A stretch of 64,000 nt of DNA, from assembly GCA_964474135.1 (NCBI GenBank), contig CAYYRV010000002.1:74473-138472 (forward strand), given 5' to 3'. This stretch comes from an uncultured Defluviitaleaceae bacterium (lineage in GTDB: Bacteria > Bacillota > Clostridia > Lachnospirales > CAYYRV01). Position 1 is the first letter of the stretch; every line of letters starts with the position of its first letter. The notes below the pieces were generated by a model, which saw nothing but the letters and a program-made list of their open reading frames with translations, was not told the origin of the DNA and made no database searches. This document shows, piece by piece, positions 1 through 63,399 of the stretch. Made by a program: the position numbers and the translations under genes.

Positions 1-833
1 TTGAACCTATTAAAAGCTTTTTGAGGGTAGTTCAAAAAACATCTGAGGGGCATCTAAATGTAAGGGTTGATGTAAAGGGGCATGATGAATTTACACAGCT
101 TGCAATAGCTTTTAATAATATGGCTGGTAAAATTGAGCAGGCAGAGAAAACAAGAGAAGAGTTTGTTTCAAATGTATCACATGAGTTAAAAACGCCATTA
201 AGTTCTATTAAAGTTTTAACAGAGGCTATACTTTTACAGGAGAATGTTCCAGAAGAGATGTATACAGAATTTTTGCAAGACATAAATTCTGAGATAGACA
301 GAATGACAAATATTATTAATGATTTGCTTAATTTGGTAAAGCTTGACCAGAGAGAAATACCTTTAAATATAAAACAAACAGATATAAATAAAATGATTGA
401 TGATATTTTGAAAAGGCTATTGCCTTTAGCAGGTCAAAAGGATATTAAGCTTACATACGAAGCACTAAAGAAAGTTGTTATTCAGGCTGACGAAATGAAG
501 CTTAGTCTTGCTATTTCAAATTTGGTGGAGAATGGTATAAAATACACTCCATCAGGAGGTAAAGTAAAAGTAATTGTTGATTCAGACCATCAAAATTGTT
601 TTATAACTGTACAAGATACAGGTATTGGCATGAAGGAAGAAGAGCAGACAAAAATATTTACTCGCTTTTACAGAATAGATAAAACTCGTGACAGGGAAAC
701 AGGAGGAACGGGTTTAGGGCTTTCTATTACTCATTCAACAATACTTTTGCATAACGGCAGTATAAAAGTAACAAGCAAGGAAAATGAGGGAACAACATTT
801 GTTGTGCGTTTACCAATACAATATACGGTTTAA
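1..833 (+). CDS. Sensor histidine kinase, C-terminal part (HAMP/HisKA/HATPase_c); 5' end lies outside the window
   Basis: Reading frame is open to the left edge. H-box FVSNVSHELKTPL, N-box LVENGIKYTP, G-boxes DTGIGM and GGTGLGLSI. Confidence 0.85.
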   Translation, partial: EPIKSFLRVVQKTSEGHLNVRVDVKGHDEFTQLAIAFNNMAGKIEQAEKTREEFVSNVSHELKTPLSSIKVLTEAILLQENVPEEMYTEFLQDINSEIDRMTNIINDLLNLVKLDQREIPLNIKQTDINKMIDDILKRLLPLAGQKDIKLTYEALKKVVIQADEMKLSLAISNLVENGIKYTPSGGKVKVIVDSDHQNCFITVQDTGIGMKEEEQTKIFTRFYRIDKTRDRETGGTGLGLSITHSTILLHNGSIKVTSKENEGTTFVVRLPIQYTV

Positions 834-895
834 TAATTAAAAGATTAGATGAAAATAACTTCATCAAACCTGCTTTTAAAATAAAGGTTGATTTT

Positions 896-2577: not shown

Positions 2578-2623
2578 AAAGTTTTGAAGAGGTTTGAGGA
2601 AACTTTTACAAAAGTTTCCTCAA
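2578..2623 (+). repeat. Family-1 stem-loop repeat, forward orientation
   Basis: AAAGTTTTGAAGAGGTTTGAGGAAACTTTT-AC-AAAAGTTTCCTCAA. Confidence 0.8.
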
Positions 2624-2633
2624 TGTTTTTTTT
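2594..2633 (+). terminator. Rho-independent terminator of ppiB, formed by the repeat hairpin
   Basis: 14-bp stem TTGAGGAAACTTTT/AAAAGTTTCCTCAA followed by TGTTTTTTTT. Confidence 0.7.
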
Positions 2634-2649
2634 AAGTAATAGACATATT

Positions 2650-4488
2650 TTAACGACATTCCCAAACGTGGAATACATTAGCAACACAGTCAGTTCCTAA
2701 GACATATGTATAGTTAATCTTTTTTGTTTCTCCTGCCGGAACTGTAACCTCAACGACATTCCACTTTTTTGATTCATTATTTATATATATAGTATCCTCT
2801 GTTTCACCTACACTTCTTTTATAATCACTTTCATAAATTTTATTGTTTATATTTTGTGTGTATATTTCATTTTCTGGGGTAATAATATTCACTGTAGATT
2901 GATAAGGGGCTACTAAGTAGTAAGTAAAGACTTTGTCCTCAAGAGTATCATTTTCCAAATAAGTGCTAATATGATAATCAATACCCCAGTTTCCTAAGTT
3001 TCCATAATTTCTTGTCCTGTTTCTTTTTTCTGAACCACTGTCCCCAACATACGGAATGTTAAGTATCCAAGTTGCTTTGTCTATTTCACTGTTTTCACCT
3101 CTAGGCTCAACTAAATGTACATCATATATTTCTCGTATATTATTTCGCTCGTTAATATTTTTATCAAGCCCACCTGTTTCAAAGCCAATACCTATGTTAT
3201 TTTCTTTAAATTCAGATGCTTTAATTTTACCTAAAGCGGATATATTATAACCATTACTATATCCTGAATATACTGTATAGTATTTTAAAGAGTTTCTGCT
3301 GTCAATTTCGGAAGCATAGCTTTCGGGTATATAATTATAGTCATATGCTTTATTAGGTGTTTCAATGCTTTTATAACGAATTGGCAAGTCAACTGTTGAG
3401 CCTGTATTTTCCATAATAAAAGCTGTTACTAATAAATCTTTGTCAGCAAAAAAATCAATTTGAGAAGAAATAAATTTTTCACTTTGCAAATTTTCTATTA
3501 CGATATCAAACTTTTCGTTAGGATTTATAATATATTTTTCAATTTTTTGATTTATAAGCTTATTATAAAAATCCTGATTGTTTTTAATAACAACTTGGTC
3601 TGTATAGGGTTCTTCATTTTGGGTTTTACTATCACCTACAATACTTAATTGAACTGGGTTGTCCTTTTTGTTTTCAAACCTAATTACATAATCTATATTT
3701 TTTTTGGAATAATTAAAATGAGAAACAAAAACACGCCCATAACCAACCACTTCTTTTTGATTAATAAATGTTTCTAAGAAGCTGTTATCAAATATTGCTT
3801 CGGGAAAGTTGCAGAATACTAATGTAGTATTATCTTCCATATCTAAATTATCAAATGGTCTTATTAGAAATTTATCGCTTTTAGTTATAATTCTTTCATT
3901 TTTCCAAGTAACGCTTTTACTTGACTCATTTATTGAAATTATAGGAAGATATTTTTTATTAAGATTATAATTATACTGTATGTCTTTATCAAAAACCAAA
4001 ATATCTGATATGTAGTCTATTTTTAACCCCATATTTTCTGTAACAAAACGGGTAGGTACATATGTTCTTGAATTAATTATTTTTGCCGCAACGCCCAGTT
4101 TTATAGGGCTTCCATTTACATATGCTATATTGCTATCAATTGTTAACAGTATTTCATCTCCAGAATTTTTTATTGTTACTTCTCTTTTAAGAGCATCATA
4201 ATCTGCTTTTGCACCTAGCTTTTCTGAAACAACTCCAATAGGAATTAAAGAGTATTCATTATCTATAATAGGATAGATGTCTTTTATTATTTCTCCGTTT
4301 ACCTCAAGTAAAGCATCAATGTCGGAAACATTAAGCCAAGGCTCATTATTCCCTAATGAAATAAAATAATTATTATTTTCAGTTTTTTCTGTTACAAATA
4401 GTGTTTTTCCATAGGCTTCAAAATTAATACAAATGCTAAATAAAATTGAAAACAATATAATAATATTGTACTTTAAGTAATTTTTCAT
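2650..4488 (-). CDS. Secreted protein with a copper-amine-oxidase-N-terminal-like (stalk) domain and a large uncharacterised C-terminal region
   Basis: Signal-peptide-like N-terminus. The segment LIPIGVVSEKLGAKADYD...RTYVPTRFVTENMGLKIDY resembles the CAO N-terminal-like domain. The rest is not recognisable. Confidence 0.5.
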   Translation of the reverse strand: MKNYLKYNIIILFSILFSICINFEAYGKTLFVTEKTENNNYFISLGNNEPWLNVSDIDALLEVNGEIIKDIYPIIDNEYSLIPIGVVSEKLGAKADYDALKREVTIKNSGDEILLTIDSNIAYVNGSPIKLGVAAKIINSRTYVPTRFVTENMGLKIDYISDILVFDKDIQYNYNLNKKYLPIISINESSKSVTWKNERIITKSDKFLIRPFDNLDMEDNTTLVFCNFPEAIFDNSFLETFINQKEVVGYGRVFVSHFNYSKKNIDYVIRFENKKDNPVQLSIVGDSKTQNEEPYTDQVVIKNNQDFYNKLINQKIEKYIINPNEKFDIVIENLQSEKFISSQIDFFADKDLLVTAFIMENTGSTVDLPIRYKSIETPNKAYDYNYIPESYASEIDSRNSLKYYTVYSGYSNGYNISALGKIKASEFKENNIGIGFETGGLDKNINERNNIREIYDVHLVEPRGENSEIDKATWILNIPYVGDSGSEKRNRTRNYGNLGNWGIDYHISTYLENDTLEDKVFTYYLVAPYQSTVNIITPENEIYTQNINNKIYESDYKRSVGETEDTIYINNESKKWNVVEVTVPAGETKKINYTYVLGTDCVANVFHVWECR

Positions 4489-6276: not shown

Positions 6277-6346
6277 AACATGAAAAATCTTGCGATTTTC
6301 GGATTGTTTCACAAGCCGGTTCGGGATTTACCAAACTCATGTTATA
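6277..6346 (-). promoter_or_regulatory. Copy B of the conserved 5'-leader element (unclassified), ending 9 nt before the mgtC start
   Basis: Gene-sense TAACATGAGTTTGG...CGGCTTGTGAAACAATCCG...GATTTTTCATGTT. Its 7-nt ends AACATGA/TCATGTT are perfectly complementary. 48 of 68 aligned columns are identical to copy D. Confidence 0.5.
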
Positions 6347-7904: not shown

Positions 7905-8357
7905 ATGATTCGTATTGAGCCTATGGAGATAAAACATATTAATGAAGTATATGAAATAGAAAAAAACAGTTTTTCAATTCCGTGGACGAAACAATCTTTG
8001 ACTCAAGAACTTCTTGAAAATAAAATAGCTATATATATTATGGCTGTAGAAGATAATAATATTTTGGGATATGCAGGCATGTGGCATGTTGTAACAGAGG
8101 GGCATATAACAAATATAGCCGTAAAAGAGGAATGCAGAAAACGTGGGGTAGGAAGTGCATTACTGAAAGGGCTTATTAATATTGCCGAACAAAAGGGAAT
8201 GATAGGGCTGACTTTGGAGGTCAGAGTGGGAAATGCTGCGGCAATGAAGCTTTATTCCAACTATGGCTTTAAAGTTGAGGGATATAGGAAGGAATATTAT
8301 TCTGATACAAAAGAAGATGCTGTTGTTATGTGGAAATATTTGAATATAGAATATTAA
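7905..8357 (+). CDS. rimI: Ribosomal-protein-alanine N-acetyltransferase (GNAT)
   Basis: GNAT motif RKRGVGSALL. Start moved from TTG 7875 to ATG 7905, which has an AAGGGGA SD. Confidence 0.85.
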   Translation: MIRIEPMEIKHINEVYEIEKNSFSIPWTKQSLTQELLENKIAIYIMAVEDNNILGYAGMWHVVTEGHITNIAVKEECRKRGVGSALLKGLINIAEQKGMIGLTLEVRVGNAAAMKLYSNYGFKVEGYRKEYYSDTKEDAVVMWKYLNIEY

Positions 8358-8480
8358 AAGAGTTTCCCAAACCCTTCAAAAACTTTAACTAAAATGCCGT
8401 TATGAGGCATTTCGACAAAGATTCTTTTTTTTATTCATTTAAGAAAGAATTGGGGGACTGGGGCTGAAAGCCCCAAAAGT
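8358..8480 (-). repeat. Mosaic repeat block: truncated family-1 unit (8362-8386) plus three hairpin modules (8392-8412, 8421-8450, 8460-8474)
   Basis: GTTTCCCAAACCCTTCAAAAACTTT, AAATGCC/GGCATTT, ATTCTTT/AAAGAAT and GGGGCT/AGCCCC. The reverse complement of 8416-8478 matches 59953-60015 at 51/63 positions. Confidence 0.75.
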
Positions 8481-8509: not shown

Positions 8510-10930
8510 ATGCAGTATAAATTGAGAGGTGATTTAGTGGTAAAGGAACTGCACTATACAAAACTTAAAAATTTTATTAGCGTGCAAGATATAAATTTTG
8601 AGACAACAGAAAAAATTGAGGCTACCAGTAAAATAATTGGTCAGGAAAGAGCAGCAAAGGCATTAGAACTTGGTCTTAATATAAAGTCAAAAGGATATAA
8701 TATATATATTGCCGGATTGCCCGGTACAGGAAAGACAACTTTTGCTGAAAAGTTTGCAAAGAAAATAGCATCTACAGAACAAACACCTCCCGATTTATGT
8801 TATATATACAATTTTGATAATCCAAAATTTCCTAAAACATTAACACTTCCTACAGGTTGTGGTAAAATTTTTCGAGAGGAAATGGAAGAACTTATTAGCA
8901 GACTTGAGGAAGATTTGCCTAAAGTTTTTAATAATAAAGAATTTGAAAACAGAAAAATGGAAATTATTAAAAATTATCAAAATAAGCGTGACGTTTTAAT
9001 TAAAGATATGACGGACGAAGCAAGGGAGCAAAATTTTGGCGTAAAAACAACAAACAGCGGAATTTATTTTATGCCAATTATTGATGGAGAGGTTATTTCC
9101 GAGGAACAATATGACAGTTTAAAGGAAGAAGACAGAGATGATATCTCCAAAAATTCCGAAGTAATACAGAAAAAAGCAGCAGATGTAATGAGAAGTATGA
9201 AAGAGTTTGAAAAAAGCACAAGAAAAGAAGTAGAGGATTTGGAATACAGCGAAGCTCTTTTTACTATTGGAAAGCTTATAAGCCCTATTTTGGAAAAGTA
9301 TGAGAGCAATGAAACTATTATAAAATATTTGCTTGACTTAAAAGAAGATATTTTGGAAAACTTAGATATTTTCATTGAAGAGGAATCAGAAGAAGAGGAA
9401 TCGATACAGGCGATTTTGCCATGGTACAGCAAAAAAAGCCCTGAGGAAACTTTTACAAAATATAAGGTGAATTTGTTAACTGATAATTCTACACTAAATG
9501 GAGCACCTGTTGTAGTTGATTTTAACCCAACATACAGCAATTTGGTAGGAGAAATAGAATACGAAAATGAATTCGGAAACTTAACAACAGATTTTATGAA
9601 AATTAAACCAGGGCTTTTGCATAAAGCGAATGGTGGATATTTAATTTTGCAGGCTCATGATGTGCTTTCTAATGCGCATGCGTGGGACGTGTTAAGAAGA
9701 GTTTTGTTAACAGGAGAAATCGTTACAGAACCTTTAAGAGAATATACTACTGGTTATGCTGTTTATGGAATAAAACCAGAACCTGTTAAACTGGATTTGA
9801 AAATTATTTTAGTAGGGACAGGATTTTATTATGAGCTTTTGCATGAATATGATGATGAGTTTCAGAAATTATTTAAAATTTGTGCGGATTTTGATTATGA
9901 AATGAATTTCAATATAGAAAATCTTCATAATTATGTTGGATTTATCAAACGCTTTATTGATAAAGAGAAGCTTAGTGAGTTTGATTATTCTGCTGTAATT
10001 AGGGTTATGGAGTATTCATCACGTATTTCAGAAAATCAAGAAAAACTTACTGCAAGATTTAATAAAATATCTGAAATTTTAATTGAGTCTGCAACATGGG
10101 CGAGATTGAAGAATTGTTCTGTAGTTTCATTAAACCATGTAAATAAAGCGATTGAGGAGAAAGAAATGCGTTGTAAGTTATATGAAGATAAGCTTACAGA
10201 AATGCTTGAAAACAATATTATTATGATTGATACACACGGCGAAAAGGTTGGTCAAATTAATGGGCTTGCTGTTTTGGAAACTTGTGAATATGCTTTTGCA
10301 AAACCTTCTAAAATTACAGCTACAACATATGTAGGAAAATCGGGTATAATTAATATTGAAAAAGAAGCCGAAATGAGCGGCAGTATTCATGATAAGGGTG
10401 TTTTAGTTCTTTCTGGGTATTTAGGTCAAAGTTATGCACAAAATTTTCCATTATCATTATCTTGTAGAATTTGTTTTGAACAAACATATAGTGGGGTAGA
10501 TGGTGATAGTGCTTCTAGTACAGAACTTTATGCAATATTATCAAGTCTTTCTGAAATCCCAATTAATCAAGGAATTGCAGTAACAGGAAGTATTAATCAA
10601 ATAGGAGAAATTCAGCCTGTTGGTGGTGTAACTTATAAAATTGAGGGATTTTTTGATTTGTGCAAAAAAAGAGGTTTAACGGGAAAGCAAGGAGTTATTA
10701 TACCAGCCCAGAATGTTCCTGATTTGGTTTTAAAAGATGATGTGATTAATTCTGTTAAAGAGGGTATGTTTCATATATATGCTATTACTCATATAGATGA
10801 AGGTATTGAAATATTAATGGGAATACCTGCAGGTGAAAAAGACGAGAGGGGGAAATTTCCTCCTGAAACTGTTCATGGTATGGTTTACAAAAAGTTAAAA
10901 AGTTTTTATAAAAAATCTATGTTGGAGTAA
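8510..10930 (+). CDS. Lon-like ATP-dependent protease (AAA+ N-terminal region plus Lon/S16 proteolytic domain)
   Basis: Walker A GLPGTGKTT. C-terminal YSGVDGDSASSTELYAILS and GSINQIGEIQPVGG resemble the Lon protease domain. Start is uncertain; GTG 8537 has a better SD. Confidence 0.75.
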   Translation: MQYKLRGDLVVKELHYTKLKNFISVQDINFETTEKIEATSKIIGQERAAKALELGLNIKSKGYNIYIAGLPGTGKTTFAEKFAKKIASTEQTPPDLCYIYNFDNPKFPKTLTLPTGCGKIFREEMEELISRLEEDLPKVFNNKEFENRKMEIIKNYQNKRDVLIKDMTDEAREQNFGVKTTNSGIYFMPIIDGEVISEEQYDSLKEEDRDDISKNSEVIQKKAADVMRSMKEFEKSTRKEVEDLEYSEALFTIGKLISPILEKYESNETIIKYLLDLKEDILENLDIFIEEESEEEESIQAILPWYSKKSPEETFTKYKVNLLTDNSTLNGAPVVVDFNPTYSNLVGEIEYENEFGNLTTDFMKIKPGLLHKANGGYLILQAHDVLSNAHAWDVLRRVLLTGEIVTEPLREYTTGYAVYGIKPEPVKLDLKIILVGTGFYYELLHEYDDEFQKLFKICADFDYEMNFNIENLHNYVGFIKRFIDKEKLSEFDYSAVIRVMEYSSRISENQEKLTARFNKISEILIESATWARLKNCSVVSLNHVNKAIEEKEMRCKLYEDKLTEMLENNIIMIDTHGEKVGQINGLAVLETCEYAFAKPSKITATTYVGKSGIINIEKEAEMSGSIHDKGVLVLSGYLGQSYAQNFPLSLSCRICFEQTYSGVDGDSASSTELYAILSSLSEIPINQGIAVTGSINQIGEIQPVGGVTYKIEGFFDLCKKRGLTGKQGVIIPAQNVPDLVLKDDVINSVKEGMFHIYAITHIDEGIEILMGIPAGEKDERGKFPPETVHGMVYKKLKSFYKKSMLE

Positions 10931-10955
10931 TTTATGAGATTATAAAATTATAAGA

Positions 10956-11050
10956 CCTTGAGGAAACTTTTGAAAAAGTTTCCTCAAACTCCTTCAAAAC
11001 TTTTATCAGAAACTCGTTTCACTCGTTTCTTTTGGGACTTAAGGTTTTTT
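10956..11050 (-). repeat. Family-1 unit (10956-11004, reverse) plus hairpin module X (11008-11030) and a T-rich tail
   Basis: 10956-11004 is the exact reverse complement of 30042-30090 (49/49). Block ends CTTAAGGTTTTTT and probably terminates the Lon-like gene. Confidence 0.85.
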
Positions 11051-11090
11051 ATTTATGATTTATAAATTAATATAATAAAGGAGTAAGAAA

Positions 11091-16028: not shown

Positions 16029-16078
16029 AAAAGTTTTGAAGAAGTTTGAGGAGACTTTTCCAAAAGTTTCCTCAAGGT
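16029..16078 (+). repeat. Family-1 stem-loop repeat, forward, inside the purN-purD spacer
   Basis: AAAAGTTTTGAAGAAGTTTGAGGAGACTTTTCCAAAAGTTTCCTCAAGG, 46/49 identical to the copy at 30042. No T-run follows. Confidence 0.85.
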
Positions 16079-16116
16079 CTTATTAAAACTTTAATATACT
16101 TAAAAAGGAGGGTATT

Positions 16117-30041: not shown

Positions 30042-30090
30042 AAAAGTTTTGAAGGAGTTTGAGGAAACTTTTTCAAAAGTTTCCTCAAGG
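30042..30090 (+). repeat. Family-1 stem-loop repeat, forward, in the flgE-flbD gap
   Basis: AAAAGTTTTGAAGGAGTTTGAGGAAACTTTTTCAAAAGTTTCCTCAAGG, followed by TTTTAATATTTT. Confidence 0.9.
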
Positions 30091-30318
30091 TTTTAATATT
30101 TTAATATAACTTTTTATTTATAGTTTACTTAGGTTCAGCAAAACTTATTGGGGTTATTTTTAAAAATTATATTAAAATTTTTGTCAGTTAGGTTTGTATA
30201 TATATGTTATTTTTTATCAAAAAAATGTATAATGAAGCTTATTAAGAAATCAGAAAAATTTTTACAATAAACACTAATATTGCAGTAAGCTTTTAAATAC
30301 TTTTATTTTGGAGGGTAT

Positions 30319-33681: not shown

Positions 33682-34965
33682 ATGGGAGACATGCTTTCGC
33701 AAGACGAAATAAACGCATTGCTTGGCGGTATAAACCCCTCTGATGTTGCTCTTGATGAGGAAGCAGAAGTGAATGGATATACTGATGATACACTTACTGA
33801 TGAACATAAAGATATTTTAGGAGAAATTGGAAATATCAGTATGGGTACTTCGGCAACAACTTTGTTTGCTCTGCTTGGTCAAAAAGTTATAATAAATACA
33901 CCTAAGGTTAGCACTATAACTTGGCAGGAGATGACTGAGAGTTACGACAGACCGTGCGTAGGAATACGTGTAGATTATAAGGAAGGGCTGGAAGGCTCTA
34001 ATATACTGATATTAAAAGAACATGACGTTAAAATAATTTCTAATTTGATGATGGGTGGAAACGGTCAAGTAGAAGATGAGGTAGAATTATCAGAAATTGA
34101 CTTAAGTGCTATTGGTGAGGCAATGAATCAAATGGTTGGTTCATCCTCTACCTCTATTTCTTCAATGATTAATAGGAAAATAGATATAGACACACCACAT
34201 GCATTTTTATTGGATTTTGAAGAAGTAGGAACGTTTTTTAATGAAGTTGGGTTTTCGCCCGACGAAATAATAGTATGTGTAAGGTTTAAAATGCAGATTG
34301 GAACACTTATAGATAGTGAGATTATGCAAATATTGCCAAAGGAGTTTGCTATAGAGATGGTTGAGACTCTTAAAAAAGAAATGATGTCGACTGCATCACC
34401 CCAAGATGAAGAAAAACAACTTTTTGATGATATTACGGCTCAAGAGGGGAATAACATTCCACCAACGCCTTCTCAGGCTCAATATGGTGCTCCTCCGCAA
34501 CAGCCATATGGTATGCCACCACAACAGCAATATGGTATGCCTCCGCAACAGCCATATGGTGTGCCACCACAGCAACAATATAATGTACCTCCGCAGCAAC
34601 CATATGGAAGTGCTGTACCACCATATAATCAATATACACAAAATCAGATGAACCAAGATTACAATGTGAAGCCAGCACAATTTCAAAATTTTGATGTTTC
34701 TGCTGTTATGCAGCAAAAGGAGAACATTGATATAATAATGGATGTTCCTTTGGAGGTTACTGTTGAGTTAGGCAGAACAAACAAAAAAATTAGAGAAATT
34801 CTTGAATTTTCTCCAGGAACTATTATTGAATTAGATAAATTGGCTGGAGAACCTATAGATATTTTAGTAAATGGTAAGTTTGTTGCTAAAGGTGAAGTTG
34901 TAGTTATTGATGAAAATTTTGGTATAAGAATTACTGATATAATAAGCCCAGAAAAGAGAATATAA
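33682..34965 (+). CDS. fliY: Flagellar motor switch protein FliY (CheC-like N-terminal half plus FliN C-terminal domain)
   Basis: LSQDEINALL, CheC-like region, C-terminal FliN/SpoA domain. Contains an internal P/Q-rich repeat. Confidence 0.9.
   Translation: MGDMLSQDEINALLGGINPSDVALDEEAEVNGYTDDTLTDEHKDILGEIGNISMGTSATTLFALLGQKVIINTPKVSTITWQEMTESYDRPCVGIRVDYKEGLEGSNILILKEHDVKIISNLMMGGNGQVEDEVELSEIDLSAIGEAMNQMVGSSSTSISSMINRKIDIDTPHAFLLDFEEVGTFFNEVGFSPDEIIVCVRFKMQIGTLIDSEIMQILPKEFAIEMVETLKKEMMSTASPQDEEKQLFDDITAQEGNNIPPTPSQAQYGAPPQQPYGMPPQQQYGMPPQQPYGVPPQQQYNVPPQQPYGSAVPPYNQYTQNQMNQDYNVKPAQFQNFDVSAVMQQKENIDIIMDVPLEVTVELGRTNKKIREILEFSPGTIIELDKLAGEPIDILVNGKFVAKGEVVVIDENFGIRITDIISPEKRI
34492..34611 (+). 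repeat. In-frame tandem repeat, 5 x 24 nt (PPQQ[PQ]YG[MV]), inside fliY
   Basis: Units 1 and 3 are CCTCCGCAACAGCCATATGGT(A/G)TG. Units 2 and 4 are CCACCACA(A/G)CA(G/A)CAATAT... This gives a 48-nt super-period. Confidence 0.85.
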
Positions 34966-36867: not shown

Positions 36868-36880
36868 TTTTTAATATTTT

Positions 36881-36902
36881 GGGGCTTTTAGTCACAAGCC
36901 CC
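36881..36902. repeat. GGGGCT/AGCCCC hairpin module in the fliQ-fliR gap
   Basis: TTTTGGGGCTT-TTAGTCAC-AAGCCCC. Same module type as at 8460, 47989, 59953 and 63371. Confidence 0.6.
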
Positions 36903-36956
36903 GATTTGAAAGTATTTTCCCTAATTTATTTCTGAAAATAAAAATGAGGATTACAA

Positions 36957-38890: not shown

Positions 38891-39052
38891 GGGGAGGAAA
38901 CTTTTGAAAAAGTTTCCTCCCCAAACCCCTCCTTTAAAACTTTTATCGGAAACGCTGTGCGTTTCCTTGCTGCTTCTTTTGTCTCTTATCTAAGTACAAA
39001 ATTAAAGTTTTTTGAAGGGTTTGGGAGACTTTTTTCAAAAAAGTCTCCTAAG
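38891..39052. repeat. Inverted pair of family-1 units (38891-38944 reverse, 39004-39052 forward) flanking hairpin module X (38948-38966)
   Basis: GGGGAGGAAAC...GTTTCCTCCCCAAACCCCTCCTTTAAAACTTTT, then GGAAACGC-TGT-GCGTTTCC, then AAAGTTTTTTGAAGGGTTTGGGAGAC...GTCTCC. Confidence 0.85.
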
Positions 39053-39061
39053 GTCGTTAAT

Positions 39062-41309: not shown

Positions 41310-41358
41310 AAAGCTTTTTGAAGGGTTTGGGAAACTTTTTCTCGAAAAAGTTTCCCAA
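41310..41358 (+). repeat. Family-1 stem-loop repeat, forward, upstream of sbcD
   Basis: AAAGCTTTTTGAAGGGTTTGGGAAACTTTTTCTCGAAAAAGTTTCCCAA. Confidence 0.85.
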
Positions 41359-41398
41359 TATCTTTGTTAAAAAAATAATATTATCAAGGAGGGAATTT

Positions 41399-47939: not shown

Positions 47940-47984
47940 AATAAGTTTTTAGTAAAAAACTTGGTTTCAATAAAGAAGTTGTAG

Positions 47985-48078
47985 TTTTGGGGCTGAATGC
48001 CCTAAATATTAATATCAGAAACATAAAAAAGAGGAAACTTTTCAAAAGTTTCCTCTTTTTTATGTTTTAAAAACTTTT
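47985..48078. repeat. Mosaic repeat block: GGGGC/GCCCT module with TAAATATTAATAT tail, then a 45-nt near-perfect palindrome built on the family-1 hairpin
   Basis: ACATAAAAAAGAGGAAACTTTT-C-AAAAGTTTCCTCTTTTTTATGT (48021-48065), then TTTAAAAACTTTT. Confidence 0.85.
48021..48065. terminator. Bidirectional rho-independent terminator between convergent genes
   Basis: 22-bp arms with an A-run on the left and a T-run on the right. Confidence 0.7.
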
Positions 48079-51736: not shown

Positions 51737-51760
51737 AATTATTGTAATATAAATTAATTT

Positions 51761-51795
51761 AAGTTCGGTGCAGTAGGACAGCATCGAACTTTTTA
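51761..51795 (+). terminator. Rho-independent terminator of htrA
   Basis: 11-bp stem AAGTTCGGTGC/GCATCGAACTT (one G.U), 9-nt loop, then TTTTA. Confidence 0.6.
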
Positions 51796-53539: not shown

Positions 53540-53559
53540 TTAAAATATTTTAAAACTCA

Positions 53560-53596
53560 AACCTAATTCTTTTTTGAAAGAAATATAGGTTTTTTG
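53560..53596 (+). terminator. Rho-independent terminator of carD
   Basis: Imperfect stem AACCTAATTCTTT/AAAGAAATATAGGTT followed by TTTTTG. Confidence 0.55.
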
Positions 53597-54930: not shown

Positions 54931-55170
54931 AAAATTAGATGTTTTTAATGAATATTGTACATATTCATATATTTGCATAATATGTTTGTGTCGAATTTTA
55001 AAATAAATTGAAAAAAAAACAAATATTATAATATATATTGAAATATTTTGTAAATTATAATATACTATATAAATAGTTAAATACAGAAGGTATATTATAC
55101 AAAAAATACATTAAGTTAATTTGACGTTAAACAAAAATTAAAAAAAGTTGTAAAATGAGGGGTAGGTAGT

Positions 55171-55971
55171 ATGAGTTCTAAATTACATTTTTTAACTAAT
55201 AGAGAAAATACAAGAATATCATATGAAAGCGTTTTTCACGATATGAAAACACCAATAGCTATAATGTATTTGAATATTCAATTGCTAGAAAAAGAAATTG
55301 ATTATAACGGAAGTATAAAAGGTTCTATTGCCAGTATTAGGAAAAATTGTCTTAGGATTATAAAGATGATAAATGATGTCACTGATAGCGAAAAGATGAG
55401 TAATGGAAAGCTTACCCCTTGCATTAAAAACTGGGACGTAATTACCGTTTTAAGAGATGTTGTGGAAAGTAGCAGTTATTTATCTGTAAGGGATGATGTA
55501 TCTATTAAGTTCTTATCGAATGTGAATCAAAAAGTAATGGCTATTGATAAAGAATTTCTTGAGAGAATTGTCTTTAATATCCTGTCAAATGCATATAAAT
55601 TTACTAATAAAGGTGGGAGTATAGAAGTAAGTGTTTATGATATTGATGAGTTTCTTGTATTAAAAATTAGAGACAGTGGTGATGGAATAAGCCCTAAAAT
55701 TATTAATAACCTATTCAAAAAATATGAAACTGTTGTTAATAACAAAAATACAAGAGGTACAGGATTGGGGTTGTATATTGTTAAGCAATTAGTTGATGTA
55801 TTAGGTGGTTCTATATGTATAAGAAATACCTTAGAAGGAACTGAGGCTACAATAATTTTCCGGAGTTATCAAATAGAAGAAGATGGAATTGAAAAATCTG
55901 TGGAAGATGACTTTTATGCTAATAACCTTGGATTAATTGAATTCGCAGATGAGAATGTAGCCTTTTTTTAG
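55171..55971 (+). CDS. Orphan cytoplasmic histidine kinase (HisKA + HATPase_c only, no sensor or TM region)
   Basis: H-box FHDMKTPI, N-box ILSNAYKFT, G-boxes DSGDGI and GTGLGLYIV. No adjacent response regulator. Confidence 0.8.
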   Translation: MSSKLHFLTNRENTRISYESVFHDMKTPIAIMYLNIQLLEKEIDYNGSIKGSIASIRKNCLRIIKMINDVTDSEKMSNGKLTPCIKNWDVITVLRDVVESSSYLSVRDDVSIKFLSNVNQKVMAIDKEFLERIVFNILSNAYKFTNKGGSIEVSVYDIDEFLVLKIRDSGDGISPKIINNLFKKYETVVNNKNTRGTGLGLYIVKQLVDVLGGSICIRNTLEGTEATIIFRSYQIEEDGIEKSVEDDFYANNLGLIEFADENVAFF

Positions 55972-56015
55972 AATTAACAATATGATTATAAAAAAGTATT
56001 TAAGGAGTTTTGTTA

Positions 56016-56050
56016 TGTCGAACTCATGTTGAATTAACATGAGTTCGACA
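56016..56050. repeat. Perfect 15-bp palindrome built on the TAGCATGAGTTCG-type core
   Basis: TGTCGAACTCATGTT-GAATT-AACATGAGTTCGACA, between convergent genes. No flanking T-run on either strand. Confidence 0.7.
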
Positions 56051-56080: not shown

Positions 56081-57649
56081 TTAAGCTGATTTTTTAAGTA
56101 TTAGAAGCTTCTGACCTGGAAAAATTTTATTAGGATTTTCTATTTCGTTTACCATAAGTAAATCATCAATAGAGGTATTATATCTTTTGGCAATTTTCCA
56201 AAGATTATCGTCACACTGTACGACATAAATAGTCATGCTTGCCATTTTATCAAGTAATGATTTGTCAATATCAACAAATTCAATATCTGTAATCATATTT
56301 GCTTGCTGCTCATCAATTACTTGTGTGCTAAAACTTAATAAAAATCTAAGTTCCATTTCTTTTCCACTTAACATATTAAATCCCACATGGTCTATACTTG
56401 CGTCAAGTTCCACACTCATGCCAGGAGAAGCACCTTTTGTCTCGATAATTTGTCTATATGGAATAATAGGTTTATATGAGAAAAGCGGTGTCGTATCACT
56501 TTCTGCTACATACAAAACGTCAGCTTCAATTATTCCCTCAACGATAACTTTATCTTCTATTACTTTTGTTTCATCTATATAAGGTTTACCTTTCACCCTA
56601 AATATTTGTAAAATATCAGGGCAGTTAGATTCTAGCTGTACAACTTCTTTAATAGGGCTTTGATTTTTGTTTCTGCAAACTAGTTTAGGGTAATTAATAA
56701 TATCTTTGCTAATATTCAGATTTTTATTTATACAATAAGCATCCTCTAATATCTCAAGTGTTTCTTGACAATGTATTTTAGCAAGAATACCAATAGAAAT
56801 TTCTACTTCTATAACCCTGTCTTCTCCATCAGAATCGGGTCTTGCCTGTATATATTGGTCTTGAACATTTAGGAAGACATCTGCCAACATATCATCTTTT
56901 GCATTTGAAATATCAATTGAACCGTTAAATGGTACTTCATGTTCAACAAATTCGATTAAACTGCTTTCGTCGTCTCCTCTGTATAATGTAGATATAATAA
57001 GTTCTCCATTTACAGTTACTTTTCCATTTGAAACTCTTACTTCCTTATTAGATACCATAACATTACATTGCAAAATTTCACGAATGTTAGGTTTGCCCGA
57101 TGTAATTGTTAGTTCATCTTTAATTATAAACCTGTCAACTTTATTTTCTATACTTCTGTTTAAGGACAAATTTGTTTTAAGCAATTGATTTTCGGGTATA
57201 TCGCTTATATTTACAACAATCTCATGTTCTTCTGTTTTTTCGCATACAACGCATATATCCGCAACTGCTCGATAACTTACTTTCCTATCATTAAGCATTT
57301 TATAATCTACATTTGTAAGTTCAGCCTTTACCTCAACCCACATATCTTTTGTTACGCCTTCCATGTTTATAAAATCATCAATATTTGTTGTTACACTCAT
57401 ACTATGTACAGGCTTATCGTTGCCTTTTGATAAATATAATACTTCAACATCTAGCTTTCCAATAAAGTTAACCCTATCATTTGAAACATCTGTGCGTTCT
57501 ATGCATATTTTTGCATCTGTTTGCAGTATAACAGCCATATCAGGTTTTATGTCTGGTACAATCAAATCTCCCTCCAATAAAATCTGTGTTGTCTCCTTGC
57601 CTACTTTCTCATCTAAAGTTATTTTTTCTCTTATTAATTCATTTGACAT
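56081..57649 (-). CDS. LysM-domain protein with repeated DUF3794/SPOCS-like domains (spore-coat/cortex-associated type)
   Basis: C-terminal LysM domain (YVVQCDDNLWKIAKRYNTSIDDLLMVNEI..PGQKLLI). AGGAGG SD. Confidence 0.7.
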   Translation of the reverse strand: MSNELIREKITLDEKVGKETTQILLEGDLIVPDIKPDMAVILQTDAKICIERTDVSNDRVNFIGKLDVEVLYLSKGNDKPVHSMSVTTNIDDFINMEGVTKDMWVEVKAELTNVDYKMLNDRKVSYRAVADICVVCEKTEEHEIVVNISDIPENQLLKTNLSLNRSIENKVDRFIIKDELTITSGKPNIREILQCNVMVSNKEVRVSNGKVTVNGELIISTLYRGDDESSLIEFVEHEVPFNGSIDISNAKDDMLADVFLNVQDQYIQARPDSDGEDRVIEVEISIGILAKIHCQETLEILEDAYCINKNLNISKDIINYPKLVCRNKNQSPIKEVVQLESNCPDILQIFRVKGKPYIDETKVIEDKVIVEGIIEADVLYVAESDTTPLFSYKPIIPYRQIIETKGASPGMSVELDASIDHVGFNMLSGKEMELRFLLSFSTQVIDEQQANMITDIEFVDIDKSLLDKMASMTIYVVQCDDNLWKIAKRYNTSIDDLLMVNEIENPNKIFPGQKLLILKKSA

Positions 57650-57763: not shown

Positions 57764-57832
57764 AACATGAAAAATATCATGGTTTTACGTTTGTTTCACA
57801 ATCCAATTTGACTACACCGAACTTACATTAAA
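57764..57832 (-). promoter_or_regulatory. Copy A of the conserved 5'-leader element (unclassified), 114 nt upstream of the LysM gene
   Basis: Shares exact AACATGAAAAAT and TTGTTTCACAA with copy B at identical 15-nt spacing. 32 of the first 41 positions are identical. Confidence 0.5.
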
Positions 57833-57973
57833 TTATGTTAGTTTTTTAAAACAAATCATTATTAGCCAGTTATACTTAATATATTATGCTAGAAGGTGAT
57901 TTATGATTATTATTATTTCAATCAAGTTAAAGTTGGGCTAGACAATGCTGCAATTAATTAATAATTTTCATAC

Positions 57974-59312: not shown

Positions 59313-59363
59313 AAGGATAGGAAAGCTTTTTTAAAAAAGTTTTCCTATCCCTTCAAAAAACTG
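59313..59363 (-). repeat. Family-1 stem-loop repeat, reverse, diverged stem
   Basis: GGATAGGAAAGCTTTTTT-A-AAAAAGTTTTCCTATCC followed by CTTCAAAAAACTG. Confidence 0.7.
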
Positions 59364-59382: not shown

Positions 59383-59922
59383 TTATTTGTTTTTGCTTAA
59401 CAATTCTTTATATGCCAAAATAGCAACCATCGTTTTAGAATCTTTTATTTTTCCATTAAAAATCATTTCAACAGATTCATCTAAAGAATATTTTTCTATA
59501 GCAACAAATTCATCTTCATCTAAATTTTGTTTGCCCTCATATAACCCCTCTGCAATATATATATGAAGCATTTCGGTACAGAACCCAACAGCTGAATACA
59601 TTTTTGTAAGAAACTCAATTTTTGAAGCTTTAAATCCTGTTTCTTCTTCAAGCTCTCTTTCTGCACAGTCATATGGGTCTTCATCTTTCTCAAGTGTGCC
59701 TGCAGGAATCTCAAGAATATGTTCTAAAGCTGGGTGACGATACTGTCTGACAAATATAATATTACCATCATTGTCTATAGGTATTATTGCAGAAGCCCCA
59801 TTATGAATAATAATTTCTCTAATTACTTCTTTGCCATGAGGCATTAAAATAGTATCCTGAACTACTTCTATTATTTTTCCTTTAAAAACCTCATTACGTT
59901 TTATAAATTTATAATTGTCCAT
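59383..59922 (-). CDS. nudF: NUDIX hydrolase (ADP-ribose pyrophosphatase-like)
   Basis: Nudix box GTLEKDEDPYDCAERELEEETG. Confidence 0.8.
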   Translation of the reverse strand: MDNYKFIKRNEVFKGKIIEVVQDTILMPHGKEVIREIIIHNGASAIIPIDNDGNIIFVRQYRHPALEHILEIPAGTLEKDEDPYDCAERELEEETGFKASKIEFLTKMYSAVGFCTEMLHIYIAEGLYEGKQNLDEDEFVAIEKYSLDESVEMIFNGKIKDSKTMVAILAYKELLSKNK

Positions 59923-59944: not shown

Positions 59945-60090
59945 AGTTAATAGTTTGGGGCTTTCATCCCCAAACCCCGACTTCTTTCTTAAAAGAAAGA
60001 AGCAAAGAATTTTTGCTAGAAACGCACTTTGTGCGTTTCTTTTTCCTTGCTCATTTATAGTGGTTAATCTTTTGCAAACCTAAGGTTTTT
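59945..60090 (+). repeat. Mosaic repeat block of three consecutive hairpin modules plus a T-rich tail
   Basis: GTTTGGGG-CTTTCAT-CCCCAAAC (59953-59975), CTTCTTTC-TTAAAA-GAAAGAAG (59981-60002), AGAAACGCAC-TTT-GTGCGTTTCT (60018-40), then ...CCTAAGGTTTTTTT. Confidence 0.8.
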
Positions 60091-60105
60091 TTATAAAAAA
60101 TAAAA

Positions 60106-61494
60106 TTAAAACTCACAGTTATTAACAGTTCTAGGGAAAGGTACAACGTCCCTAATATTTGAGATACCTGTAATATACATAATTAATCTCTCGAATCCTA
60201 AACCATAACCTGCATGTTTAACACTTCCAAATCTCCTTAAATCCAAATACCACCAGTAATCATCTTTACTTAATCCCAATTCTTCCATTCTATTTTCCAA
60301 AACATCTAAACGTTCTTCCCTTTGGCTTCCTCCAATAATTTCTCCAATACCCGGAACAAGCAAGTCCATAGCAGAAACTGTTTTGTTATCTTCATTTATT
60401 CTCATATAAAACGATTTAATTTCTTTAGGGTAGTCTATTACAAAGACAGGCTTTTTATATACTGTTTCTGTAATATATCTTTCATGTTCTGTCTGAATGT
60501 CTGAACCCCATTTAACAGGATATTCAAACTTTACATCAGCTTTTTCAAGAATATCTATTGCTTCTGTATAAGTAATTGTTGCAAATTCAGAATTTAAAAT
60601 ATTATTAAGTCTCTCTGTAAGCCCCTTATCAACAAAGCTGTTAAAAAACTCCATTTCTTCAGGGGCATTGTCCATAACATACTTAATTATGTGCTTTAAC
60701 ATATCCTCTGATAATTTCATAATATCTTTTAAATCGGCAAATGCTATTTCAGGCTCTATCATCCAAAACTCTGCTGCATGTCGAGTTGTATTTGAGTTTT
60801 CAGCACGGAATGTAGGTCCAAAAGTATAAACATCTCTAAAAGCCATTGCAAATGTCTCAGCTGAAAGCTGTCCACTTACAGTAAGACTTGCCATTTTCCC
60901 AAAAAAGTCTTCCTTAAAATCAATACTACCTTCTTTAGTTTTTGGAGGGTTGTTTAAGTTTAATGTAGTAACTTGGAACATTTCCCCAGCACCTTCACAA
61001 TCGCTTGCTGTAATAATAGGCGTATGTGCGTATACAAATCCTCTTTCATTAAAGAACTGGTGTATAGCATATGAAGCAAGTGAACGTACTCTAAATACTG
61101 CCGAAAATGTATTTGTTCTTGGACGCAAATGAGCAACAGTTCTTAAATACTCAAGCGTATGGCGTTTTTTTTGTAACGGGTAGTCAGAAGCAGAATTACC
61201 TTCTACAATTATATTTTCTGCTTTTATTTCAAATGGTTGTTTGCTTCCTTGGCTTTCAACAACTTTTCCTGTTACAGTAATACTTGCTCCTGCTCCAAGT
61301 TTTGTTATTTCTGTAAAATTTTCAAGTTCATTTAAAAAGACAATTTGTATACTTTTAAAAAAACTTCCGTCGTTTAATTCTATGAATCCAAAGTTTTTAT
61401 TATCCCTTACAGTTTTTACCCATCCTCCAACAACAACTTCCTTATCCATATATTCTTCATGCTGTTTATAAATGTCTTTAATTTTTGTATACAT
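60106..61494 (-). CDS. asnS: Asparagine--tRNA ligase
   Basis: Class IIb synthetase, 462 aa. [21 protein letters not shown] and GYGLGFERL motifs. Confidence 0.95.
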
Positions 61495-63357: not shown

Positions 63358-63368
63358 AGAGACAGGGG

Positions 63369-63399
63369 TTGGGGTTTATAGCCCTAAAATATTAATATT
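63369..63399. repeat. GGGG/CCC hairpin module with TAAAATATTAATAT tail
   Basis: TTGGGGTTTATAGCCCTAAAATATTAATAT parallels 47987-48015 TTGGGGCTGAATGCCCTAAATATTAATAT. Confidence 0.6.

Follow-up and report, generated by a model that had tools for sequence, protein, structure and literature searches.

What is the repeated, hairpin-rich block that fills the spacer between asnS and a NUDIX gene in the genome of an uncultured Defluviitaleaceae bacterium? The sequence under study, referred to as the window, is a stretch of 64,000 nt, and an initial annotation had described the block at 59945-60090 as a mosaic of three consecutive hairpin modules with an inverted, homologous counterpart 51 kb away. The first of the two (block A) occupies the spacer of 183 nt that separates asnS (stop at 60106) from the NUDIX gene (start at 59922), two genes of the minus strand; the second (block B) is flanked by two plus-strand genes, a GNAT gene that stops at 8357 and a LonC-like gene that starts at 8510. 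The blocks are mutually inverted, yet they have the same orientation with respect to the transcription of the flanking genes, and both stop ~31 nt ahead of a start codon. [quoted passage not shown]

Architecture of the units within the window

The similarity of the two blocks is exactly as first described, i.e. 59953-60015 of the plus strand and the reverse complement of 8416-8478 share 51 of 63 positions without gaps, well beyond what chance would give. An independent repeat search returned A and B as an inverted pair (62 nt, 82%), and in a blastn-short comparison within the window the core 59954-59993 was aligned to 8477-8438 with 87.5% identity over 40 nt (E=9e-6).

Below, S denotes the gene-sense strand. 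The modules of a unit follow one another on S in the order Y hairpin, linker AAAAnTTCTTTG, polypyrimidine/polypurine palindrome (M2), short copy of the X 5' arm (pre-motif) and X hairpin. In block A these are Y AGAAACGCAC/GTGCGTTTCT, linker CAAAAATTCTTTG, M2 CTTCTTTCTTTTAAGAAAGAAG, GTCGGGG-TTT, X GGGGATGAAAGCCCC and the tail AAACTATTAAC (Table 1). The three hairpins of the initial annotation were recovered in both blocks, and the third one of block B (AAATGCC/GGCATTT) is indeed unlike that of block A but equivalently placed. The Y hairpin of block A is terminator-like on the plus strand only, i.e. antisense to the flanking genes. When folding was compared with that of shuffled sequences, the S strand of block A reached -40.7 kcal/mol (z=-6.0) and the other strand -36.1 kcal/mol (z=-5.3). 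The pre-motif, i.e. the 4-6 nt just 5' of X, co-varies with the X 5' arm that it copies (GAGAG TTT GAGAG, GGGG TTT GGGG, TAGGG TTT TAGGG), as seen at 59975-59980 and 8451-8457 and in the external loci L134, L156 and L051. The 3' arm of X therefore has two alternative partners.

The same skeleton minus M2 is found in a second group of repeats, family-1 (AAAGTTTTGAAGGAGTTTGAGGAAAC...GTTTCCTCAAGGTTTTAAT), as was seen by aligning A and B with 10986-11075 and 38920-38998. The TTTTATC(A/G)GAAAC junctions said to introduce the hairpins that follow family-1 units were located at 11001-11013 and 38941-38953. Y hairpins of the GAAACG..CGTTTC type stand after the linker at 11008-11030 and 38948-38966 as well as in L051, L054, L134, L156 and L171. 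The truncated family-1 unit that had been reported as fused to block B is also present, and together with block B it makes up a dyad centred on the Y hairpin. Inverted unit pairs of this kind are seen at 8361-8478 and 38891-39053, and degenerate remnants lie beyond Y at 60043-60094 and 11034-11052. In block A the sequence suggests that 60043-60094 is a degenerate second arm: TTCCTTGC (60043-60050) pairs with GCAAAGAA (60002-60009) around Y, and AAACCTAAGGTTTTTTTAT (60076-60094), 11 nt from the asnS stop, is an X-tail remnant parallel to GGGACTTAAGGTTTTTTAT at 11034-11052. The composite as a whole has dyad symmetry, with X outermost, toward the genes, and Y central, and the block makes up one of its arms. 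X-type hairpins standing alone were confirmed at the three places given earlier; the one starting at 47972 has a weak score as a degenerate unit.

All of the 14 window units are intergenic. The X end is gene-proximal in 12 of them, 3-35 nt from the gene boundary, which is explained if the element fills a formerly short spacer. The outward position of X in the dyad also accounts for the apparent tendency of copies to be sense and ahead of genes, with no need to postulate a function.

Table 1. Coordinates of the repeat units and their modules in the window
Feature	Position	Strand	Remarks
A: X hairpin	59954..59974	-	TTTGGGGCTTTCATCCCCAAA on +; gene-proximal end, 31 nt before NUDIX start 59922
A: pre-motif	59975..59980	-	CCCC on + (GGGG on S); repeats X 5' arm
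A: M2 palindrome	59981..60002	-	CTTCTTTCTTAAAAGAAAGAAG; polypyrimidine/polypurine hairpin
A: linker	60003..60015	-	CAAAGAATTTTTG (S: CAAAAATTCTTTG); conserved single-stranded motif AAAAGTyCTTTG
A: Y hairpin	60018..60040	-	AGAAACGCAC/GTGCGTTTCT
A: putative degenerate second composite arm	60043..60094	+	
B: whole	8392..8478	+	ends 31 nt before 8510 start codon; profile E=1.4e-5
B: parts	Y 8392-8412; linker 8416-8427; degenerate M2 8421-8450; pre-motif 8451-8457; X 8459-8475	+	
Truncated family-1 arm	8361..8389	-	opposite to B, 3 nt past GNAT stop; 22/22 nt identical to 41315-41336
Family-1 arm, Y and X-tail remnant	10952..11052	-	X + linker 10952-11007; Y 11008-11030; X-tail remnant 11034-11052
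Complete dyad composite	38891..39053	.	X1 + linker 38891-38947; Y 38948-38966; spacer; linker + X2 39004-39053
Family-1 unit	2578..2625	+	
Family-1 unit	16029..16081	+	35 nt before start codon 16117
Family-1 unit	30042..30097	+	
Family-1 unit	41310..41358	+	upstream of sbcD
Family-1 unit	59318..59363	-	NUDIX-spoIIM spacer
Degenerate unit AAAGAAGTTGTAGTTTTGGGGCTGAATGCCCTAAATATTAAT	47972..48013	+	E=0.03; followed by family-1-type terminator hairpin 48030-48056
Solo X-type hairpin	36878..36904	-	TTAATATT before hairpin; between fliQ and fliR
Solo X-type hairpin with pre-motif	63365..63399	+	GGGGTTGGGGTTTATAGCCCTAAAATATTAATATT
Second repeat set, pairs	6277-6317 and 57764-57804; 51745-51774 and 57811-57840; 55987-56037 and 57681-57731		

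Copies outside the window and occupied versus empty sites

Copies of the element were found well beyond the window. A scan of viral contigs with the family-1 pattern gave three contigs of 31-33% GC, and the M2-plus-linker pattern gave one further viral contig together with six low-GC metagenome contigs among the matches listed. The viral contigs, which carry MuA/MuB-like genes, terminases and tail sheath and tube, belong to real phages, and the copies lie between structural genes. A profile (nhmmer) built from nine external blocks only recovered each block on the strand expected for it, block A with E=6e-12 and block B with E=1.4e-5, while no more than 7.3 bits was reached in 20 shuffles of the window. 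The relative L049 has 5 units, and arrays are present in L051-L054.

In the low-GC metagenome and phage contigs the three modules occur in the order X-M2-Y, e.g. CCTTGAGAGCGTTGCTCTCAA-ACTCTCAC-TTCTTTCTTGAAAGAAAGAAACAAAGAACTTTTATC-GGAAACTACGTTTCC in L134. The recurrence of the module order, which had been proposed as a check, is thus seen in unrelated contigs and phages. The suggested combinatorial mixing of modules stands mainly as a difference between lineages, whereas the order itself is fixed. M2 occurs alone in Acetobacteraceae-like genomes, M2 and Y occur in 60%-GC gut contigs, X, M2 and Y in low-GC Clostridia and their phages, and X, linker and Y in family-1. The low-GC copies are often continued by a mirrored second arm, and the whole is then bounded by terminal inverted repeats, CAGCTTGTCAAAAAA ... 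TTTATTGACAGACTG, as in a complete copy of 230 nt in L163 and a copy of 145 nt in L104; the ends of the low-GC composites read CAGCTTGTCAAAAAA / CAGTCTGTCAATAAA. The inverted doublets described below end in AAAAGTyyTTTG...CAAAGAACTTTT. In the window the ends are X arms with TTAATAnTT before them, and these ends are less sharply defined. Several X hairpins are followed by GGTTTTTT.

The variability of the modules was investigated in an alignment of 11 sequences (A3). In the X helix 97.7% of the cells are paired, and 5 of the 8 pairs are changed on both sides, i.e. the changes are compensatory. None of 500 shuffles reached the observed covariation, and shifting the partner by 1-3 columns abolished the pairing. 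The M2 helix is invariant across the copies, and the linker is nearly so. M2 and linker are therefore constrained as sequence, and X and Y as stems.

The core formed by M2 and linker, TTCTTTCTTGAAAGAAAGAAGCAAAGAACTTTT (33 nt), is near-identical in at least 120 contigs of 30-72% GC, which were matched in metagenomes by the pattern TTCTTTCTTRAAWGAAN{2,6}AAAGAAYNTT. Where the pattern leaves a free choice, nearly all matches have identical bases (AGAA[G/C]C), hence they are homologues and not chance hits. Non-coding copies are present at many unrelated sites, namely 14 units within the window and, with differing flanks, at least 120 contigs. Among the matches listed, ~95 copies belong to Acetobacteraceae-like contigs that come from peat, moss and soil and have a GC content of 58-72%; the YidC protein of one such high-GC contig has only Acetobacteraceae as named relatives. 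The cores of block A and of the Acetobacteraceae type match at 31 of 33 positions. In these genomes the element takes the form of 45-nt singlets and, at 37 sites among the matches listed, of inverted doublets of ~55-85 nt such as TAAAAGTCTTTTGCTTCTTTTCTTCAGAAAAGAAGACTCTTCTTTCTTGAAAGAAAGAAGCAAAGAACTTTTA; a folded copy of 75 nt gave -31.1 kcal/mol (z=-5.4). A relaxed core search yielded 229 matches in 123 loci, with a density of up to 7 per ~10 kb (L140). When the high-GC contexts were determined with open reading frames (ORFs) filtered by third-position GC content (GC3), 15 copies lay between convergent genes and 1 between divergent ones; of the co-directional copies 8 were sense and 6 antisense, and 3 more copies were inside ORFs. 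The counts therefore indicate a REP-like preference for 3' ends and no strand bias. In human-gut contigs of 60% GC, a GC-rich Y hairpin comes after M2, which directly adjoins a Shine-Dalgarno (SD) sequence, and in contigs of 32-44% GC the core is accompanied by different accessory hairpins.

Some of these copies have further peculiarities. In many doublets (L063, L081, L098, L158, L165 and others) the flanking 5-9 bases are mutually inverted and differ from copy to copy, e.g. AGGAC/GTCCT, GGCGC/GCGCC and AAACTCG/CGAGTTT. Such flanks could reflect insertion into existing hairpin loops or a variable outer stem. Note that the flank complementarity (4.84/8) is only modestly higher than with shuffled partners (4.30 +/- 0.17), and we do not use it as evidence. 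In L118 (~3080-3200) and the orthologous L166 the upstream ORF runs into the element and stops at a TGA within M2; the insertion in L118 appears to have replaced the C terminus of the protein, an arrangement that was kept in the ortholog. In L131, a contig of 61% GC, an ORF of 246 aa (108-848, minus strand) lies between two inverted core elements, one of which adjoins the SD sequence of the ORF while the other is 7 nt past its stop codon. The protein had no match in Pfam, NCBIfam or PDB. Its H-F-H tripeptide with tyrosines ~30 residues further on is too weak a sign for it to be called an HUH enzyme. A scan of contigs with the X-hairpin pattern, the matches of which were mostly chance or coding, led to the Oscillospiraceae metagenome-assembled genome (MAG) MGBC110487 (~50% GC), the spacers of which are dense mosaics of short hairpins such as GGGGCTTTCAGCCCC, GGGCTTACGCAGCCC, CCCCTTTTCTTTCTACAGCGAAAGAAAAGGGG and TTTCTTTTGGAGGCAT..GCCTCCAA (L008, L011-L013, L032, L041, L042, L046). 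One of its loci, L041, has TTTGGGGCTTTCAGCCCCAAACCCTGACTTCTT, a junction almost equal to that of block A. These mosaics are probably a further branch of a superfamily shared with block A.

Insertion was seen in comparisons of orthologous sites. Between asnS and NUDIX there are 183 nt in the window, against 21 nt (L048) and 20 nt (L176) in relatives with this gene order; block A is therefore an insertion. The NUDIX-spoIIM spacer is 170 nt in the window, where it has a family-1 unit, against 61 nt in L048. The nadD-rsfS-ftsK-asnS row is compact in L050 (gaps of 0-11 nt), whereas in L049 every junction of the row measures 189-335 nt and both junctions flanking rsfS have family-1 units. Among Acetobacteraceae-like contigs, the site that is filled in L068 and L169 is empty in L120, where the next start is 9 nt past the stop. 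The empty junction reads TAG-GACCGGAAG-ATG and the filled one TAA-ACGGAT-[67-nt doublet]-ATCCAT-TAA-GGACTCCTG-ATG. Presence and absence at orthologous sites is thus seen in three settings (L068/L169 versus L120, asnS-NUDIX, and L049 versus L050). Short-read contigs of the window organism in Logan end inside block A.

Mobile element, RNA module or terminator

In the model that we prefer, an arm reads on S as Y (usually GAAACG..CGTTTC), linker AAAAGTyCTTTG, M2 CTTCTTTCTTTyAAGAAAGAAG, a copy of the X 5' arm, X and the tail AAGGTyTTAAT, and two inverted arms around one or more Y hairpins make up a dyad composite of ~150-250 nt with the X ends adjoining the genes. M2 and linker would be the putative recognition site of a trans-acting enzyme or host factor, since they are conserved as primary sequence. 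The element would be copied by a transposase encoded elsewhere and co-transcribed with the operons of its hosts, and phages may be one route of its horizontal spread. What the data show directly is repetition, a fixed module order, variation that keeps the stems, insertion relative to relatives, presence in phages and conservation of the core over distant lineages; the mode of transposition, the enzyme and any influence on RNA belong to the model.

Several observations weigh against this model. We found a transposase neither in the window nor within inverted element pairs; a related autonomous insertion sequence (IS) with the same ends was likewise absent from the window, and the inverted pairs enclose housekeeping or unknown genes. 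We rejected the idea that such gene-enclosing pairs are themselves transposons: the pair in L129 encloses the rpmH-rnpA-yidD-yidC operon, and that in L131 an ORF without a recognisable domain. No recent, strain-level presence/absence polymorphism was found in the lineage of the window, whose nearest relatives have 77-79% AsnRS identity. The single filled/empty pair is compatible with a TAA target duplication; a TA duplication was not seen, and no consistent direct repeat flanks the other copies. Copies nearest to start codons are mostly sense, which a purely selfish model explains only via the dyad geometry. Moreover, a 33-nt core that is near-identical over 30-72% GC is unlike known REP or MITE families and could point to a universal host factor instead.

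Among known repeats, the REP/BIME/REPIN sequences of Proteobacteria are mobilised by the REP-associated tyrosine transposase (RAYT), a Y1 HUH transposase. Like these, the present element consists of short, imperfect intergenic palindromes, often at 3' ends and within operons, with conserved linkers, mosaics of alternating orientation and inverted doublets that form one long hairpin (37 doublets of ~55-85 nt among the matches listed); it is very numerous and, presumably, co-transcribed. Unlike REPs and REPINs it is AT-rich even in hosts of 65% GC and lacks a conserved 5' tetranucleotide of the GTAG type. REP families are confined to their lineages, whereas the core is near-identical from Clostridia to Acetobacteraceae and occurs in phage genomes as well, i.e. 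in Clostridia-like, Acetobacteraceae-like and phage contigs of 30-72% GC. No Y1_Tnp domain or RAYT was detected among the ORFs scanned (the window and loci of 8-14 kb).

The likeness to BOX, already drawn in the initial annotation, is apt as a description of a modular intergenic repeat with several module types and as an analogy. Pneumococcal BOX (boxA-boxB(n)-boxC) also has a fixed outer order, variable inner content and stable stem-loops and lacks a transposase of its own; the modules described here are individual hairpins in a dyad, and the host range is far wider. No relationship in sequence was seen, although no comparison with BOX sequences was made; we propose an architectural analogy and not membership of the BOX family. 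Correia/NEMIS (Neisseria), ERIC/IRU (enterobacteria), RUP (pneumococcus) and bcr1 (Bacillus cereus group) are similar in being non-coding, ~100-250 nt long, bounded by terminal inverted repeats and located between genes or within operons, in forming long hairpins in mRNA and in varying in presence between relatives. They differ from our element in that here a TA duplication was not seen (TAA once), no parent IS is known, the core is cross-phylum and an arm has three discrete hairpins instead of one long imperfect palindrome. On architectural grounds BIME and REP-REPIN mosaics and co-transcribed MITEs appear to be the closest parallels, with BOX as a fair analogy; what is unusual is that the core is conserved over phyla and over genomic GC content alike.

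Database searches gave little. In Rfam, with gathering as well as permissive cut-offs, the window had three tRNAs only, the best score in the block region (E=0.022) being far below gathering, and 16 related loci contained one tRNA. No description of the X hairpin or the M2 core was found in searchable papers by exact sequence. BLAST of a 321-nt low-GC composite had no match among INPHARED phages or PLSDB plasmids, and the 75-nt doublet had none in PLSDB, perhaps partly because of the low-complexity filter.

The main alternative is that the block is a cis-acting RNA module of 5' untranslated regions or inter-cistronic spacers that controls translation initiation, mRNA stability or processing, its SD-like purine arms (GGAG, GAGG, GGGG, AGAAAG) being matched with pyrimidine arms that resemble an anti-SD (CCTC, CTTTCT). 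We regard this as unlikely; a mobile element might also have been exapted for such a role. The position of the copies speaks for it: each of blocks A and B is in sense orientation to its gene, with ~31 nt left to the start codon, the copy in L051 is 24 nt before an ATG and the second arm in L054 is placed likewise, all five L049 units are sense and upstream of genes, and M2 directly adjoins the SD sequence in the 60%-GC gut contigs and in L131. The two alternative pairings of X permitted by the pre-motif and the folding of block A on S (z=-6) are also in its favour. Nevertheless, the downstream genes are unrelated (NUDIX, LonC, rsfS, ftsK, asd, dapA, phage tail tube), the start codon is anywhere from 24 to more than 200 nt away, there is no Rfam match, and the GC-rich genomes have no strand bias (15 convergent, 8 sense, 6 antisense, 1 divergent). 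Antisense copies are equally near to stop codons, and the orientation pattern therefore follows from the dyad architecture. Similarly improbable is the idea that the 33-nt core is the site of a machine common to distant bacteria, for example the ribosome (the arms mimicking an extended duplex of SD and 16S 3' tail) or a factor of transcription or RNA decay. The element would then be a pan-bacterial, horizontally spreading "plug-in" that insulates neighbouring cistrons via termination, stability or translation and is tolerated or recruited by its hosts, with X and Y as interchangeable, lineage-adapted accessories. Recognition by a shared machine would, if true, explain why an element of ~30% GC is unchanged in genomes of 65% GC.

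Ordinary intrinsic terminators or attenuators, alike by composition and function and with neither common descent nor mobility, seem very improbable. Like Rho-independent bidirectional terminators, the units have hairpins flanked by A- and T-tracts, and many stand after stops or between convergent genes, where the GC-rich copies are concentrated; Y of block A is terminator-like on the plus strand, and GGTTTTTT follows several X hairpins. However, in the transcribed direction neither X nor Y of block A has a T-run, and copies in tight operons also lack a T-tract in that direction. By the features of an intrinsic terminator, block A qualifies only with Y on the antisense strand and block B not at all, while some external X hairpins do qualify. 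This explanation is refuted by shared sequence outside the stems: the unpaired parts (linker, spacing of the pre-motif, tails) are conserved, the free positions of the pattern are identical across phyla, and the external profile reaches block A at E=6e-12. A fixed order of several hairpins and insertion relative to orthologous loci are also unlike terminators; block A itself sits in a gene row that is spaced by 20-21 nt in relatives. Less probable again is a Nus-factor antitermination (boxA-like) or nut-like site in which the linker GTTCTTTG is flanked by boxB-like hairpins. The stretch AAAAGTTCTTTG of the linker resembles what we take to be the Gram-positive rrn boxA, TGTTCTTTGAAAAC, a consensus that was not confirmed. 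According to the literature, the boxA consensus differs between phyla. Both orientations of the element occur without strand bias in co-directional contexts, and it is enriched at 3' ends between convergent genes, which argues against such a site. Finally, the probability that two AT-rich spacers are alike by chance is close to nil. The window has a GC content of 31% and the M2 region is of low complexity, as this explanation would have it, but it is refuted by the E values within the window (9e-6) and with the external profile (6e-12), by the family-1 pattern (3 observed, no match in 100 shuffles) and by the same module order in independent assemblies. Two structural ideas were also dropped: a triplex (H-DNA-like) fold of the polypurine/polypyrimidine tracts, since the 1-nt connector is too short, and Y hairpins as MuA-binding sites (CGTTTC half-sites), the resemblance being only six bases.

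REP, BOX, ERIC and Correia repeats are usually specific to a genus or a family, and their mobilising enzymes and effects on the host are mostly debated. The present family is distinctive in its clear grammar of a sequence-invariant core plus hairpins conserved as structures only, in the occurrence of one core in Clostridia-like genomes, in their phages and, very densely, in Acetobacteraceae-like alphaproteobacteria, and in filling operon-internal spacers as far as the ribosome-binding site. A direct route to the enzyme or host factor would be open if the core serves for recognition. An effect of the copies on termination, translation or mRNA stability would mean that thousands of genes of uncultured lineages contain an unannotated regulatory insert. 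On the practical side, the elements break short-read assemblies and create spurious starts or ends of ORFs, as at 41318 in the window and in L118. The former is the TTG start of the longest ORF listed for sbcD, which lies inside the family-1 unit 41310-41358; the Metallophos domain is not reached until residue 28. The true start, probably near 41390, would be downstream of the unit. False N-terminal extensions can arise from repeats of this family.

Host and further features of the window

The window is 12.5% intergenic. A flagellar operon, spoIIM, sipL and sbcCD are present, the host is therefore a spore-forming, Clostridia-like bacterium, and the nearest relatives by AsnRS come from uncultured MAGs, among them one named Defluviitaleaceae. 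The cumulative GC skew has its maximum at ~55 kb (55000-56000), which coincides with a switch of gene orientation from plus to minus and would fit a replication terminus, or else an inversion breakpoint, within the window. With respect to replication as well as transcription, blocks A and B are therefore equally oriented.

An M2-like hairpin, ATTCTTTTTTGAAAGAAAT, is found at 53559-53592 within a local stem (AAACCTA/TAGGTTT) that is followed by a T-run; its score with the block profile is weak (E=0.016). A second, unrelated set of intergenic repeats consists of AACATGAAAAAT..GTTTCACAA, AAGTTCGGTGCAGT and CATGAGTTCGA hairpins (Table 1). These had no match in Rfam and are located in long spacers, upstream of 6714 and on either side of a sipL-like gene (56081-57649). 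Within a coding region, a 24-nt tandem repeat of 5-6 in-frame copies (34480-34623) encodes a Pro/Gln/Tyr/Gly-rich stretch of the ORF 33682-34965.

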